64,000 nt of DNA from an uncultured archaeon (GCA_964347045.1 CAYFXC010000003.1:70701-134700); one strand, 5' to 3'; positions 2,335-9,763 are shown, numbered from the stretch's first letter. Numbers and translations are program-made. Notes: generated by a model from the sequence alone, not told the origin.

Positions 2335-3375
2335 ATGACTGATGCATTTCCACCTTCAACAGAAGAATTCGATACAATTGAGGAACGGGCGGGAGATGCG
2401 AAATTCTTCCTAACTCTTGGAAGTGGAACCTTCTTAATCTTAGGCGCTCTCCTACTTCTACCTCATCTCGCCAATTATTTTGGTTTAATTCTCCTTCCTC
2501 CAAATGTAGCCCTTGCTTCGCTCATGGCTGGATTAGGTTATCTCCTTCCCGGATTTGTTCTATTCGCCTGGGGTTTAGGAAAAATCTTTCGTGGAAAGGA
2601 TCTGACTTTTCAGCAAGTTTGGCAAGCCCGAGTGCAAATTGGGGATGTCAAGCGAACCCTTCGCTTCCTCGTCTTTGTTACATTCTTTATCATCCTGCTT
2701 GTAGTTCCCGTGCTCATCGGGCTGTCTATCCTTGACATTATGAATGCCATCATTATGTGGGCACTTACTGTCTTTGGACCATTAGGAATTTATGTCGGAG
2801 TTTTCATTATTAGTATCTTTGGTAATTTCACTGTCATTTTTCCCGTTCCTTACTTGTTTATTATTCTCTTAATTGCCCTCCAACCAGGATTCACACTGTT
2901 AGATGCTCTGCTGCTTGGCATAGTGGCTGGCGCCGGAGCAGCTATTGGAGAAACAGTTGCCTGGCTACTCGGGCGTAGTCAGAGCGGATCCTTGGAAGAA
3001 TCACCTACTGGGCAAAAGATTTTAAAAATCCGTGGACAAATCGAACGCGGCTATGGGGGGCTATTGATCTTCATCTATGCTGCAACACCACTACCTGATG
3101 ACATCCTCCTCATCGCTCTTGGGGCAACGAAATATCCGCTATGGAAAGCTCTCGTTTTTTGTTTCTTCGGAAAAGTTGCACTTGCATTATTAATTACTTT
3201 GGGAGCGCAGTTACCCTTTCTACAACCCATTTTGTTCCAAATTTTTGGAGGAGGTTCAGATCCTCTCATGGATACCCTCTATCTCATTCTCGGTATCGCT
3301 TTGATTGGTCTATTCTTTTTACCATGGGGAACCCTGCTAAGGAAGATTCGTGGCACATCAGAGGAGACGAAATAA
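2335..3375 (+). CDS. DedA/VTT-family membrane protein with extra N-terminal TM segments
   Basis: Multiple TM helices; FPVPY, GAAIGE..AWLLGR and ATPLPDD motifs. Confidence 0.75.
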   Translation: MTDAFPPSTEEFDTIEERAGDAKFFLTLGSGTFLILGALLLLPHLANYFGLILLPPNVALASLMAGLGYLLPGFVLFAWGLGKIFRGKDLTFQQVWQARVQIGDVKRTLRFLVFVTFFIILLVVPVLIGLSILDIMNAIIMWALTVFGPLGIYVGVFIISIFGNFTVIFPVPYLFIILLIALQPGFTLLDALLLGIVAGAGAAIGETVAWLLGRSQSGSLEESPTGQKILKIRGQIERGYGGLLIFIYAATPLPDDILLIALGATKYPLWKALVFCFFGKVALALLITLGAQLPFLQPILFQIFGGGSDPLMDTLYLILGIALIGLFFLPWGTLLRKIRGTSEETK

Positions 3376-4113
3376 ATAGATTCGCTCTAATAAGCCAAAA
3401 ATACGGCCCTTAGCAATGATCTGAATTTTGAAGCCGACATTTTTTGTAAGTGAAATTATCCGTGGCAATAAAGCAGCGGAACTTAGCAGCATCTGGATTT
3501 CACCGTTTTTGGCTAGCACTTGTCGTGCATTGCTAAGAAACTGATCAAATAGCTCGTACTTAGAACCAGCACACCATCCTTTTGCCATCCAGCTTTGAGC
3601 ATCAAACCGGAAATAAGGGGGGTTGAATAAGATGATATCAAATGTTTCGTCCTTTACTGGAGAGAATAAATCACCTAAAAGGACTCTAACTCGGCTCTCA
3701 ATTCCATTTAGTCGCAAAGTAGCTTGGGCACATTGAACCGCTAAGGGACTGATATCCGTTGCTGTCACAGGTTGTGTTATCTGTGCCGCCGCGGCTGCGA
3801 TGGCTCCTGACCCAGTGCCAATTTCAAGCACCCGTCTTCTAGGTTTTAATTTCATGTGTCGAATAAAAAAGGAGGTTGTTTGACCCAAAATCGGGTTGAA
3901 CACTTGGGGGCAAATCTGTACGCGAAGTCCGTTAATCATTGTTACTTTTTCATAATGTACTCGACGATGGAAGAGTTCCAATAACCATGCGATTAGCCTT
4001 GGATATTGTGATTGGGCTAACATGATTAGATATCCTTCTTTTGTTTCATTCACAAGAGCATAATTGTTTAGTTTTCCCCTAAAACAACTAGGAGCTGATA
4101 TGCTACCCCACAA
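3358..4113 (-). CDS. HemK2/PrmC-like class I SAM methyltransferase (true start probably the ATG near 4023)
   Basis: VLEIGTGSG, DIS, GDLFSP and FDIILFNPPY motifs. Confidence 0.85.
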   Translation of the reverse strand: MWGSISAPSCFRGKLNNYALVNETKEGYLIMLAQSQYPRLIAWLLELFHRRVHYEKVTMINGLRVQICPQVFNPILGQTTSFFIRHMKLKPRRRVLEIGTGSGAIAAAAAQITQPVTATDISPLAVQCAQATLRLNGIESRVRVLLGDLFSPVKDETFDIILFNPPYFRFDAQSWMAKGWCAGSKYELFDQFLSNARQVLAKNGEIQMLLSSAALLPRIISLTKNVGFKIQIIAKGRIFGLLERIYLFRLL

Positions 4114-4152
4114 GGTTTTAAACTATTCAATCTAAGGTGACACTGATGCAGA

Positions 4153-4617
4153 ATGGCGCTCGGCGGATTTGACTTCTTAGCAGCTGAAAAAGACACCTCT
4201 AAGAAAATTGAGGAACTTGCGCAAGTTCTTGAAAGGGTGGCAACCATTTTTCTCAACGGCGTTGGCTCACTTGAAAAACAAATAGATGATTTGCGAAATC
4301 GGTTATCTATAATTGAAACACAAGTTGATACAGTTCTTCGTATGGGTGGACCCAAAGGAGCACCAACAGTTACCGCCGCCACCAGTGTAGGAGAACCGCC
4401 TAAAGCCGGACCAACTCCTAGTCCTGGAATGCCGCCTTCACAAGCTAGTCCCGGTTCTTCTCCAGGTCTGGCAGCACCTCCTCAAGCGCCAACATCACCG
4501 ATGGGTGCTGCGGCCTCCGGCGGGCTAGGAATTCGTGCTCAAATGCAAGGTGAACTTCAATCATTTCTTGCTCGACGCCGTGCGGCGCTTGAATCCATGA
4601 TGGAAAATGAAGAATAG
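4153..4617 (+). CDS. Coiled-coil / proline-rich / basic-helix protein; candidate actin regulator
   Basis: N-terminal heptad helix, PP-rich low-complexity linker, C-terminal GGLGIRAQMQGELQSFLARRRAA. Confidence 0.55.
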   Translation: MALGGFDFLAAEKDTSKKIEELAQVLERVATIFLNGVGSLEKQIDDLRNRLSIIETQVDTVLRMGGPKGAPTVTAATSVGEPPKAGPTPSPGMPPSQASPGSSPGLAAPPQAPTSPMGAAASGGLGIRAQMQGELQSFLARRRAALESMMENEE

Positions 4618-4629
4618 CAGCGTCTTGCC

Positions 4630-5268
4630 CTATTCATTTTTAAAGAATTGGCTTAAATCCTGTTGACCTTTCTGTGGTTCGGAATTTAATTTTTCACGAG
4701 TATTAAGCAGGCGTTTTAGTTTTTGCATATCTGCTTCCATCTCTGGGGTTAGATTTTGATTATACAATCCTGCCGCAGGGTGATACATTACAAAATAGGT
4801 GCGTCCTCCGCGTTTGAAGGTTTTTCCATGCATGGTTCCCATTCTTACAGTTGTTTCAAGAATGGTTTCTGTTGGAACTCGACCGACCAACGCAATAACT
4901 CGAGGTTTTATAAAATCTAATTGGCGTAAAAGGAATGGAAAACAGGCTTTTCGTTCATCAGCGAATGGTTGTCGATTTTCTGGAGGACGACACTTTACGA
5001 TGTTTGTGATGAAAACCATCGCTCTCGGGATTCCGGCTTCTTCTAGCAATTTGGTAAGTAATTTTCCTGCCGCTCCAACAAACGGCTCACCTTGAAGATC
5101 CTCTTGTCTTCCTGGTGCCTCGCCGATTATAACTAATTGGGCTTCTTGAGGCCCAACTCCCGGCACTGCTTGTGTCCGGGATTTCGAAAGTATACATTTA
5201 CGACATTCTAATATCTCGTGTCGTAGAAGGATCCATTGGTCTGAACTCATCGTCTCACCACTTACCAA
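4630..5268 (-). CDS. udg: Family 4 uracil-DNA glycosylase with C-terminal PCNA-interacting (PIP) box
   Basis: CRKC, GEAPG, PFVG, KCRPPENR, HPAA; C-terminal QQDLSQFF matches QxxLxxFF. Confidence 0.93.
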   Translation of the reverse strand: MVSGETMSSDQWILLRHEILECRKCILSKSRTQAVPGVGPQEAQLVIIGEAPGRQEDLQGEPFVGAAGKLLTKLLEEAGIPRAMVFITNIVKCRPPENRQPFADERKACFPFLLRQLDFIKPRVIALVGRVPTETILETTVRMGTMHGKTFKRGGRTYFVMYHPAAGLYNQNLTPEMEADMQKLKRLLNTREKLNSEPQKGQQDLSQFFKNE

Positions 5269-6375: not shown

Positions 6376-6798
6376 ATGACTGAAGCACCTACCGACAAAA
6401 CAAATGATAAGATTCGAGAATGGTCTCGTGAAATCAATCGTGGCATTCTTGAGTTCTGGGTACTCACCTTATTGCGGCAAGAAAGCCTTTATGGAGCGCG
6501 TATCAGCGCTCTTATCGATGACATGTCGGCAGGGCACATTCAAATGGAACCCGGAACCATCTATCCCTTACTCAATCGTCTTGCAGAAAAAGGGTGGATT
6601 GTTGGCAACACCAAAATCCACAGTGAAGGTCGAGGGCCCTTGCGTCGGTACTATCGGTTAACCAAAGATGGTGATCAATTACTCCAAGCAATGATCGACC
6701 ATTACTTTGATACATGTGAAGCCCTCTTCCAATTAATGGCATCTGAGTTCCAGTCTGTCCGTAAACGCTTATCTTCAATAACGGAGGAAATTGATTAA
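6376..6798 (+). CDS. PadR-family transcriptional regulator
   Basis: RGILEFWVLTLL, YG, GTIYPLLNRL..KGWI, RRYYRLT..G. Confidence 0.92.
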   Translation: MTEAPTDKTNDKIREWSREINRGILEFWVLTLLRQESLYGARISALIDDMSAGHIQMEPGTIYPLLNRLAEKGWIVGNTKIHSEGRGPLRRYYRLTKDGDQLLQAMIDHYFDTCEALFQLMASEFQSVRKRLSSITEEID

Positions 6799-9051
6799 AT
6801 GTCAGCAAAAATTCAACTTCGTGTAGTCTCTCTTCCAAGCGATGAAGCTGGACGTGGAATTGTCCGTGTTGACCCCAAGGTCATGGAACGCCTTGGCGTG
6901 ACGTCGGGGGACATAGTTGAGATTACAGGAAAAAAGAATACTGGTGCTCGCGTTTGGCGTGGTCAATCCATTCATGCGGGTTCAGGAAAAATCTTCATGG
7001 ATGGTCTGGTCCGAAGCAACGCTGGTACTGGGATTGGAGAATTTGTCGAAGTCAAACGAATTGATCCATCACCTGCTAAAGGAGTCGAACTTGCACCTGC
7101 ACAACGAGGTGTTCGAATTGTCGCGGAAGGCGATGCCGTAAAACCGAGCTTAAATCAACGACCAGTTGCTCAAGGTGATATTGTTAGTACTGCGGGATCA
7201 GGCACCATTCGGAGTGGCGATTATTCAGTTTTCGAAGCTATGATGCGTGGTGCAGGAGCACCCTTTGCCCTTGGAGAAATCAAGTTCGTGGTTACTAAAA
7301 CCACTCCTAAAGGCATTGTTAAGATTACCGAAGATACGGTTATTCAGATTCAACCCGAAGCCGTCGATATTACTGTAAAAGCTCCCATTGTCACCTACGA
7401 AGATATTGGAGGGCTTGATGAGGCTATTGACCGCGTTCGCGAGATGATTGAACTTCCTTTGAAACACCCGGTGCTCTTTGATCGATTGGGAATTGATCCA
7501 CCAAAAGGAGTCCTACTATTCGGACCACCTGGTACGGGTAAAACTCTTCTAGCACGTGCTGTAGCCAATGAATCTGATGCAACATTCATTTCCATTAATG
7601 GTCCTGAAATTATGAGTAAATTTTATGGCGAATCTGAAAAACGCCTACGGGAACTATTTGATAAAGCATCTGAACGTGCTCCTAGCATCATCTTCATTGA
7701 TGAAATCGACAGCATTGCTCCTAAACGTGAAGAAGTACAAGGGGAAGTAGAACGTCGTGTTGTAGCCCAGCTCCTTGCACTCATGGATGGTCTTCAAGCC
7801 CGAGGCCGAGTCATCGTCATTGCGGCCACTAACCGCCAAGATGCATTAGATCCAGCGTTACGTCGCCCCGGTCGCTTTGACCGCGAAATTGAAATCCCAG
7901 TACCAACACGCACGGGACGCAAGGAAATTCTTCTTATCCACACACGTGGTATGCCCTTAGCTAAAGATGTGAATCTAGATACACTTGCTGATTCCACACA
8001 TGGAATGGTAGGCGCTGATTTGGCTGCAATTGCCCGTGAAGCGGCAATGAATACGTTGCGCCGGATTCTTCCACGAATCAATTTGGATGAGGATCAACCT
8101 CTTCCATCAGATATTATTGAAAGTCTTGAAGTCACAGGTGAAGATTTTGACGAATCATTACGACGTGCAGAACCTTCTGCTCTTCGCGAAGTGTATCTAG
8201 AAATCCCCAAAGTATCATGGGAGGACGTGGGAGGACTAAAAGAAGTAGAAGATGAATTACGCGAAGCTGTTGAGTGGCCTCTAAAATACCCTGCTAAATT
8301 TGAAAAAGTCGGGGTTCAACCACCTAAAGGAATTCTTCTCGTTGGACCACCTGGTGGTGGAAAGACATTACTAGCAAAGGCTGTTGCCACCGAAAGTGAA
8401 GCCAACTTCATTGCCATCCGAGGACCTGAGATTTTCAGCAAATGGGTGGGAGAATCTGAGAAAGGAATTCGGAAAATCTTTCGCAAAGCACGACAAGTTG
8501 CGCCTAGTATAATCTTCTTTGACGAGCTTGATAGCCTTGCTCCCGCAAGAGGTCAATGGCAAGGAAGCCACGTCTATGAATCCGTTCTTAATCAACTCCT
8601 TGCAGAGATGGATGGAATGGAAGAGCTCAAAAACGTCGTTGTAATTGGTGCCACCAATCGACCTGAAATCATTGATAAGGCACTCCTCCGCCCTGGACGC
8701 TTTGACCGAATCATCATGGTCCCAGCACCAGACATGGAAGCTCGGATAGAAATTCTCAAGGTTCATACACGAAAAATGCCCATCGATGACGATGTAGACC
8801 TTATAAAAATCGCTAAGGAAACCGAAGGCTACTCTGGTGCTGATATCGCAAACCTTATCCGTGAAGCTGGCATGTACGCAATTCGAAACGAAGAAAAACT
8901 GACTACTGTCAATGCCAAGCACTTTGAAGCAGCTAGGGCTAAAATCAAACCCAGCATCACTCCTGAAATGCTCAAAGCCTACAAAGATTACATCGACGTG
9001 ATGTCCACAAAACGTGATGCTATCGACACCACGCCTGGTCCTTATACCTAA
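6799..9051 (+). CDS. cdc48: Cdc48/VAT (p97-family) AAA+ ATPase
   Basis: N-domain plus two AAA modules (GPPGTGKT / IIFIDEID / RRPGRFD; GPPGGGKT / IIFFDELD / RPGRFD). Confidence 0.97.
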
Positions 9052-9211: not shown

Positions 9212-9763
9212 TTGCCAAAGAGACCTAAATACAAAATAGAAAATGTAGTTGCAAGCGTCGAAGTCGACGCAAAAATTGATCTCAATCTTCTTGCCCGTAA
9301 ACAGCGGGATGCTGAATATAACCCCGAACAGTTTCCTGGGTTGATGCTCCGTGTGAAAAATCCAAAGGCTACTATTCTCGTCTTTAATAGCGGACGGATG
9401 GTCATCACAGGATTACGACGAGAGAGCGAAGCAGAGAAGGCCGTCGAAAACGTGATTGCCAAGATACGGAAAGCAGGGATCACAGTCTCCGGTAAACCCA
9501 AAATTACTATCCAAAATATCGTCGCTTCAGGTGATTTACACAGCCGCGTGGATCTCGATATGGCACAGATGGCCCTAGAACGCTGTTTGTATGAACCCGA
9601 AGTCTTCCCGGGGCTTATCTACAGAATGAAGACTCCTAAAGCCGTTTTCCTAATCTTTAGTAGTGGAAGGATTGTTTGCGCTGGTACAAACAAAGAGACA
9701 ATCACCCGCAAAGCAATCTATCTTTTAGCAGATCACATGCGTGATCTTGGGCTAATCGAATAA
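9212..9763 (+). CDS. tbp: TATA-box-binding protein
   Basis: Two TBP repeats: IENVVAS..YNPEQFPGL..LVFNSGRMVITG and IQNIVAS..YEPEVFPGL..LIFSSGRIVCAG. Confidence 0.98.
   Translation: MPKRPKYKIENVVASVEVDAKIDLNLLARKQRDAEYNPEQFPGLMLRVKNPKATILVFNSGRMVITGLRRESEAEKAVENVIAKIRKAGITVSGKPKITIQNIVASGDLHSRVDLDMAQMALERCLYEPEVFPGLIYRMKTPKAVFLIFSSGRIVCAGTNKETITRKAIYLLADHMRDLGLIE

Follow-up and report, generated by a model that had tools for sequence, protein, structure and literature searches.

The open reading frame at 4153–4617 on the plus strand of the window (the whole 64,000-nucleotide stretch of archaeal DNA that was analysed) encodes a genuine, expressed small protein of 154 residues that belongs to an undescribed pan-Asgard family and has the build of a eukaryotic actin-assembly factor in miniature. 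We regard the family members as small adaptors peculiar to the Asgard archaea, and our favoured, if tentative, reading is that of an oligomeric tether whose end helices would bind a strongly conserved partner, for which actin is the leading candidate. Asgard archaea regulate actin with profilins and gelsolins, and filament polymerases (formins, Ena/VASP) are known from eukaryotes only (PMC13716822). As it is pan-Asgard, abundant and single-copy, and combines an oligomeric coil, a proline-rich arm and a basic helix, the family is an obvious candidate for the missing Asgard polymerase. Binding of the 154-residue protein to actin would bear directly on the origin of the eukaryotic actin machinery, while an end helix that anchors proteins, Arf/Rag-like GTPases included, to membranes or to another hub would amount to a new targeting signal, portable between proteins, in the archaea most closely related to eukaryotes.

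A conserved three-part protein of Asgard archaea

The gene (4153–4617, stop codon included) runs from an ATG start to a TAG stop, as given by the ORF list and its translation, and all orthologues share its start methionine as well as its length. It stands alone on the plus strand at its locus, between two minus-strand genes that encode a methyltransferase on the left (3358–4113) and a family-4 uracil-DNA glycosylase on the right (4630–5268). Direct reading of the sequence reveals a TATA-like A/T-rich stretch at 4116–4127 (+), 26–37 nt 5′ of the ATG, that is a putative archaeal promoter; a scan for bacterial-type promoters and terminators at the gene found none, as expected for an archaeon. An antisense frame of 104 residues at 4068–4382 (−) overlaps the gene and is the glycine-rich mirror frame of its proline-rich stretch, but unlike the frame at 4153–4617 it is without homologue support. 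Gene callers could choose the wrong strand in genes with glycine-rich mirror frames of this kind. Further into the window, as read from the translations, a PadR-type regulator gene (6376–6798, +) ends one base before a CDC48/p97-type double-AAA ATPase gene (6799–9051, +), a spacing that suggests an operon, and a TATA-box-binding protein gene follows at 9212–9763.

A word-indexed search returned 65 homologues of 136–165 residues with 47–84% identity to the 154-residue protein, all of them named solely ‘hypothetical protein’ of Promethearchaeota or Thorarchaeota. An exhaustive single-sequence search among 1.84 billion representatives gave only nine matches, three of which are distant proteins of the same layout, and a profile that included these three relatives matched proteins of Odin-, Hod- and Hermodarchaeota. 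By six-frame profile search of the phylum, the family is present in 258 of 400 genomes, mostly as a single copy, in 64 of the 90 high-quality genomes and in 69 of the 85 genera. Judged from the names among the matches, and with a genome search that covered the phylum's own genomes, the family appears to be restricted to Asgard archaea. The 65 homologues, the 258 genomes and the near-invariance of the helices while the linker varies demonstrate that the frame is not a chance ORF. Neither Pfam nor NCBIfam holds a model of the family, matches in the latter lying nowhere near any cut-off, and our literature search found no paper on the family, nor on CCDC53/WASHC3 together with Asgard or archaea.

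Gene neighbourhoods differ between Thor-, Odin-, Hermod- and Loki-type lineages, and actin genes were not seen beside family members in these loci. Only two neighbours recur, an NTP-transferase gene and one with an AIRS domain, and both are probably left over from an old gene order. In the window, an NTP-transferase/hexapeptide-type gene of 432 codons, as read from its translation, is located at 645–1943, 2 kb upstream of the gene described here; in an Odin-type locus (L006:1176–5194) a gene of this type accompanies an ESCRT cluster (Snf7, Vps4, ESCRT-II) 3–7 kb upstream of the family member, and its upstream position in both is possibly a remnant of the old order too. Odin-type genomes also carry a second, divergent family copy of 173 residues (L071:294–812, +) in which the coil, a proline/lysine-rich arm and the end helix are kept.

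An AF2 model built with a 74-sequence alignment predicts a helix at residues 6–64 (pLDDT 82–96), disorder at residues 68–121 (pLDDT ∼40, below 50) and a second helix at residues 125–153 (pLDDT ∼90), whereas the pTM of 0.30 leaves the mutual placement of the two helices undefined. The three stretches quoted in an earlier, sequence-only reading of this DNA are all found in the translation, namely a helix at residues 26–58, a Pro/Gly/Ser/Ala-rich linker at 65–124 and the end helix at 122–145. The order that it proposed, coil, proline-rich linker and end helix, is conserved phylum-wide, whereas the acidic tail and long proline runs are not family-wide.

The N-terminal helix (residues 6–64; 4168–4344, +) is a heptad coiled coil and the presumed oligomerisation module, as indicated by the AF2 model, by PDB profile matches and by an insertion of exactly seven residues, i.e. 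one heptad, in some orthologues. In our own reading of the sequence the heptads are regular, with one break at FLNG (residues 33–36; 4249–4260, +), a near-invariant stretch, earlier likened to BRK1/CCDC53, in which N35 is kept in at least 90% of the 74 sequences. Close to the start of the protein is an acidic/aromatic motif, GFDFL (residues 5–9; 4165–4179, +), that takes the form EEFF, EDF or DEF in other lineages of the family-wide N-terminal alignment. PDB matches of the family profile are trimeric coiled coils only (GCN4-pII fusions, adhesin stalks and reovirus sigma-1; E 1.5e-6 to 1e-4), which makes an oligomer likely and a trimer plausible. The Pro/Ser/Ala/Gly-rich arm that follows (residues 65–124; 4345–4524, +) is disordered, as judged from its low pLDDT and from a sequence that varies among close relatives. 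Its proline fraction is 0.23 and its longest proline run 2; runs of at least four prolines occur mainly in Loki-type members and are confined to some lineages, the Loki-type orthologues having two to four PPPPPG-like tracts in the arm.

The amphipathic, basic end helix (residues 125–153; 4525–4611, +) is predicted by AF2 and is the segment most conserved across the phylum, where it approximates to S-L-R-x-x-L-x-x-E-L-K-x-L-F-x-K-R-R. Its core, ELQSFLARRR (E134 to R143; 4552–4581, +), follows the family-wide pattern EL-K-x-L-F-x-K/R-x-R. Five residues are invariant in the 74 sequences (L40, E55, E134, L135 and R143), and the Glu and Leu of the core are invariant also in a 19-lineage alignment. 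With E134, L135 and R143 among the invariant residues the end helix is the best-conserved part of the protein, the coil being much less conserved across the phylum; the LARRR helix singled out in the sequence-only reading is thus indeed conserved among orthologues. An acidic tail with a net charge of −4 (residues 147–154; 4591–4614, +) is present in this clade and some others only; in many lineages the protein ends directly behind the basic cluster, so that the tail does not characterise the family as a whole.

Likeness of the end helix to actin-binding motifs

Residues 259–278 of human VASP constitute an F-actin-binding motif, and the sequence printed for it (PMC10340426) agrees with the one cited in the sequence-only reading. 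The end helix can be laid on this motif without a gap, the two having in common the hydrophobic spacing, one Glu and LARRR. In our own alignments, the lineage represented by L065 shares 11 of 20 positions with the motif, and 12 of 13 core positions of the Loki-type end helix are identical or conservatively substituted. When the 15-residue VASP core was compared with 709,000 ORF positions of the genome (ungapped, BLOSUM62), the end helix was the best match (34 versus 33 for the next), and with an HMM of the family C-terminus the 20-residue motif reached 9.0 bits (E 0.14), a score that none of 2,624 ORFs attained. An HMM of the helix only gave 1.6 bits and rank 222, and as one profile yields 9.0 bits and another 1.6, the statistics are not robust. 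What stands of the proposed VASP likeness is therefore a visible, family-wide resemblance of motifs, but not its statistical backing. The likeness would appear real at the motif level and is compatible with convergence and with deep homology alike. The Pfam models WH1, WH2 and VASP_tetra found no match on 15 members or on isolated C-terminal pieces, and neither Pfam nor NCBIfam gave a match on the end helix.

In overall design the protein resembles Ena/VASP, both combining a coil for oligomerisation with a region rich in proline and with a short amphipathic helix that ends in an Arg/Lys run, and the Loki-type orthologues also share proline tracts (PPPPPG repeats) with Ena/VASP. Unlike Ena/VASP, the 154-residue protein is without EVH1, a WH2-like G-actin site or a VASP_tetra match, its proline runs do not exceed two residues, and its coil is N-terminal with ordinary heptads, whereas the Ena/VASP coil is a C-terminal right-handed tetramer. 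An archaeal counterpart in layout is arcadin-2 of Pyrobaculum calidifontis (PDB 5LY3), a regulator of crenactin in which a core is followed by an unstructured linker of non-conserved sequence and by a small C-terminal helix that is conserved and on its own binds the hydrophobic groove of crenactin, an archaeal actin (PMC5173319). The two proteins are alike in this succession of core, linker and C-terminal helix, and are likened by layout and not by sequence. The arcadin-2 gene lies beside that of crenactin in the arcade cluster and arcadin-2 binding depends on a Trp, whereas the gene in the window is without an actin neighbour and its product has no Trp.

Proteins of the WASP family have a central (C) amphipathic helix with a basic pair, an acidic tail after it and a proline-rich region before it. 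The end helix with its basic pair, the acidic tail of this clade and the preceding proline-rich region recall this arrangement. A WASP-family VCA, however, comprises a WH2 domain and a conserved Trp in its acidic tail, whereas the 154-residue protein gives no WH2 match and contains no Trp at all, many lineages of the family are without the acidic tail, and the genome is without an ARPC4 match. That an actin polymerase can be built from a trimeric coil, tracts rich in proline and short helices that bind actin is established by Burkholderia BimA. BimA is a trimeric autotransporter mimicking Ena/VASP, and its coil and proline tracts resemble the family layout, although the family has neither a WH2 motif nor an autotransporter domain. 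The NCBIfam model for BimA (NF040983, cut-off 600) weakly matched P0069 at residues 66–117 (E 0.004, 16.1 bits) and P0071 at residues 50–122 (E 0.023, 13.6 bits), mainly on the proline-rich arm and, for P0071, with some of the coil included, and these matches are most likely a composition effect. The end helix also bears a likeness to the C-terminal peptide of FtsZ (FLRR-type), which we take to comprise four residues only.

The same helix is found on other proteins. A profile of the last 36 residues gives one strong match per genome, which is the family member, and nothing else in the protein's own genome or in Lokiarchaeum ossiferum. In two Loki-type genomes (G146 and G160) it also matches the C-termini of Arf/Rag-like GTPases of 414–475 residues (L067:397–1638:+, L068:299–1723:+ and L069:328–1740:−; Pfam Arf and Gtr1_RagA, E ∼1e-21). 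These GTPases end in a helix of the ELKD-L/I-F-x-K-K type, which is preceded by a lysine-rich stretch and a proline-rich linker in L068 and L069, and by a coiled coil and a short proline-containing stretch in L067. Its presence on unrelated proteins identifies the end helix as a portable module, and as such it would fit a docking peptide for a common partner and, equally, a GTPase-type C-terminal membrane anchor.

Asgard actin as a candidate partner, and alternatives

In the tether that we tentatively favour, the coil would form a homo-oligomer, probably a trimer, that presents several end helices on flexible arms per particle. Each end helix would be a docking peptide for a very conserved partner, and several together would act through avidity. 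A specific, very conserved protein partner is argued for by the retention of E134, L135 and R143 in sequences that otherwise drop to ∼25% identity, and actin in particular by the VASP motif likeness, the Loki-type polyproline, the arcadin-2 precedent and the apparent restriction to Asgard archaea. On Asgard actin, the candidate partner, the end helix could run lengthwise on the filament, as the VASP F-actin-binding motif does, or, alternatively, occupy the hydrophobic groove in the manner of the arcadin-2 or WH2 helices; in either pose the oligomer would tether, bundle or feed filaments. The PPPPPG tracts of Loki-type orthologues could recruit profilin-actin. The 154-residue protein is without such a tract, so that any effect here would come from the end helix alone. 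Against actin are the limitation of runs of four or more prolines to some lineages, with none in the 154-residue protein, and the report that Loki and Odin profilins do not bind polyproline (PMC8410842).

The layout and conservation of the family, its mostly single copy and its spread over 69 of 85 genera agree with the actin reading, as does the genomic setting. Actin, on which the earlier proposal of an archaeal elongation or nucleation-promoting factor depends, is present in this 89%-complete genome at 447 bits, together with further actin-family genes, two 2-domain gelsolins and a profilin-like protein that scores 24.2 bits, just below the cut-off. The main actin gene is on contig C30, apart from a tandem pair of divergent actin-family genes on contig C8 (L003 and L004; 63633–64625 and 64783–65775, both −) with 112 and 115 bits to Pfam Actin. 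Actin is also very conserved across the phylum, with 71–83% identity among the same genomes. On the other side, homology to any actin-binding family is without statistical support, and the neighbourhoods differ and have no actin genes beside family members.

Protein-level data come from a 2025/2026 study of L. ossiferum that combined a whole-cell proteome with Lokiactin co-immunoprecipitation (PMC13716822). It reports 3,061 expressed proteins, with most profilins and gelsolins in the top 500, and an enrichment of profilin, gelsolins and an Arf GTPase with Lokiactin (PMC13716822). In a closed Loki-type genome (G137), taken to be that of L. ossiferum since its two 2-domain gelsolins interpolate onto the published locus tags, the family member is encoded at 2,628,799–2,629,257 (152 residues, 16.14 kDa), and its L. 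ossiferum locus tag was derived by interpolation between the positions of the two 2-domain gelsolins and from the molecular weight of its neighbour, the ORF just upstream having a computed mass of 24.03 kDa as compared with 24.01 kDa for GNAMCCOK_02218. The L. ossiferum orthologue is thus, by inference, GNAMCCOK_02219. This protein has a mean log2 intensity of 18.47, at about rank 380–460 of the abundance-sorted proteome, and such expression is in keeping with the actin reading. It is absent among the co-immunoprecipitation entries listed, which extend from a log2 ratio of 10.0 down to −1.06. With the tag assigned in this way, the orthologue is abundant yet not enriched with Lokiactin under those conditions, a result that counts against actin and in favour of a membrane or another hub, although weak or salt-sensitive binding would escape the co-immunoprecipitation. 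The gene directly upstream of Loki-type members, on the same strand, encodes a 205–206-residue Elf1-like zinc-ribbon protein with an acidic tail (L045:18037–18654:+; L010:7240–7857:+); its inferred tag, GNAMCCOK_02218, is modestly enriched with Lokiactin (log2 1.36, adjusted p 0.034), and the gene in the window has no neighbour of this kind.

That the protein is instead a membrane tether is possible but doubtful. The end helix would then be an amphipathic, basic targeting sequence like the C-terminal helices of MinD and FtsA, and the coil a membrane-held scaffold on flexible arms. Consistent with this, one hydrophobic face is followed by a basic cluster at the extreme C-terminus, with a flexible linker before it, and the Arf/Rag-like GTPases of G146 and G160 bear the motif at the end at which the small GTPases of eukaryotes are anchored to membranes; the position of the end helix after a polybasic stretch on these GTPases also fits an anchor and is a point against actin. 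Targeting helices, however, usually keep their amphipathicity and not their sequence, whereas the end helix has kept Glu-Leu and one Arg unchanged throughout the phylum, and lipid-binding helices do not usually hold an acidic residue constant.

An adaptor for another conserved protein hub is conceivable though rather unlikely. The hub, for instance a GTPase effector, a filament of the tubulin/FtsZ type or an ESCRT/Vps4 MIT-type module, would recruit both the 154-residue protein and the tailed GTPases. In its favour are the portability of the end helix, which occurs on unrelated N-terminal domains, and the location of the Odin-type gene ∼4 kb from the ESCRT cluster, with unrelated genes between them. 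No conserved neighbour points to a particular hub, however, and there is no positive evidence for any specific partner. The MIM1 pattern of ESCRT-III C-termini is (D/E)xxLxxRLxxL(K/R). A MIM1 reading of the end helix was rejected on the 19-lineage alignment, where the invariant Glu stands in place of the key Arg and Phe in place of the final basic residue, and this mismatch speaks against the hub reading.

Docking may also be dispensed with altogether if the end helix packs on the N-terminal coil, within or between chains, to give a structural or regulatory bundle. Both helices are confidently predicted and conserved, and the 60-residue arm is long enough for such packing. We nevertheless consider it improbable, as the pTM of 0.30 means that the helices are not confidently placed relative to each other, the GTPases with the same end helix lack this coil, and the conservation of the end helix is far above that of the coil across the phylum.

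Much the same low probability is given to the strongest form of the actin reading, in which the family is an archaeal forerunner of eukaryotic actin-assembly modules that brings together on Lokiactin a BRK1/CCDC53-type coil, a profilin-recruiting arm and a helix of the VASP F-actin-binding or WASP-C type. Were this so, Asgard archaea would own an undescribed actin polymerase or tether predating eukaryogenesis.

Comparison of the coil with BRK1 and CCDC53

Kinship of the N-terminal helix with BRK1/CCDC53, as the sequence-only reading had proposed, is not established by profile comparisons, and membership of the 154-residue protein in these families is probably absent. Pfam CCDC53 (PF10152) gave no match at E≤10 on the protein or on any frame of its genome, the one sub-threshold Pfam match of the protein being to the baculovirus P10 coiled coil. 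Across 15 diverse members CCDC53 is the best-scoring Pfam family, and full-length Odin-type members, and these only, match it at E 3.7e-5 and 24.6 bits, which is exactly the gathering cut-off. This match spans both the coil and the proline-rich linker; with residues 1–72 alone it is gone and generic coiled-coil noise is left. As it depends on the low-complexity linker, the match was ruled out as proof of homology, and the CCDC53 model gives noise matches in 6 of 14 control genomes.

For profile–profile comparison, a WASHC3 set of 80 real sequences was fetched with a 78-residue bait (100% identical matches); all are mammalian, and the test is thus one without eukaryotic diversity. With hhalign, the family or its N-terminal part aligned to this mammalian-only WASHC3 set with a probability of 37–42% (P 2.6–3.5e-4) over 28–29 columns, pairing the FLN...LE...L..R...IET pattern of the family with WASHC3 with one gap, and to BRK1, for which a provisional query sequence was used, with a probability of 19–23%. 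The WASHC3 scores of 27.7–30.8 exceed those of all 326 random ORFs of the genome (maximum 22.2), which makes the match unusual for a single pair. The pair was, however, picked after the resemblance had been seen, and with thousands of coiled-coil families possible a P of ∼3e-4 is not significant. Coiled coils are notorious for chance profile matches. In a search with the N-terminal HMM, BRK1 (again as a provisional sequence) and WASHC3 draw level with the top scorer among 2,624 background ORFs. In the PDB, the 154-residue protein and an Odin member retrieved generic coiled coils only, as did the family profile, whose matches are trimeric and include neither BRK1 nor WASHC3. The 89%-complete genome contains nothing that matches WASH WAHD1 (PF11945), strumpellin (PF10266) or ARPC4 (PF05856) at E≤1.

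A true homologue of BRK1/HSPC300 and CCDC53/WASHC3, i.e. a trimer-forming core subunit of an archaeal WAVE/WASH forerunner, is therefore highly improbable: the single-pair WASHC3 score, the BRK1 and WASHC3 scores level with the best background ORFs and the top rank of CCDC53 for full-length Odin-type members speak for it, and the choice of the pair by its likeness, the dependence on the linker, the noisy CCDC53 model, the generic PDB matches and the unmatched WASH and Arp2/3 models speak against it. The protein differs from BRK1 and CCDC53 in that the similarity is below significance, partner subunits are not detected and the C-terminal parts of the family and WASHC3 do not align in hhalign. 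What it has in common with BRK1/HSPC300 and CCDC53/WASHC3 is its small size and a long N-terminal helix in which FLN is followed by heptads that end in IET or IEA, and with CCDC53 also a coil that runs on into a low-complexity linker.
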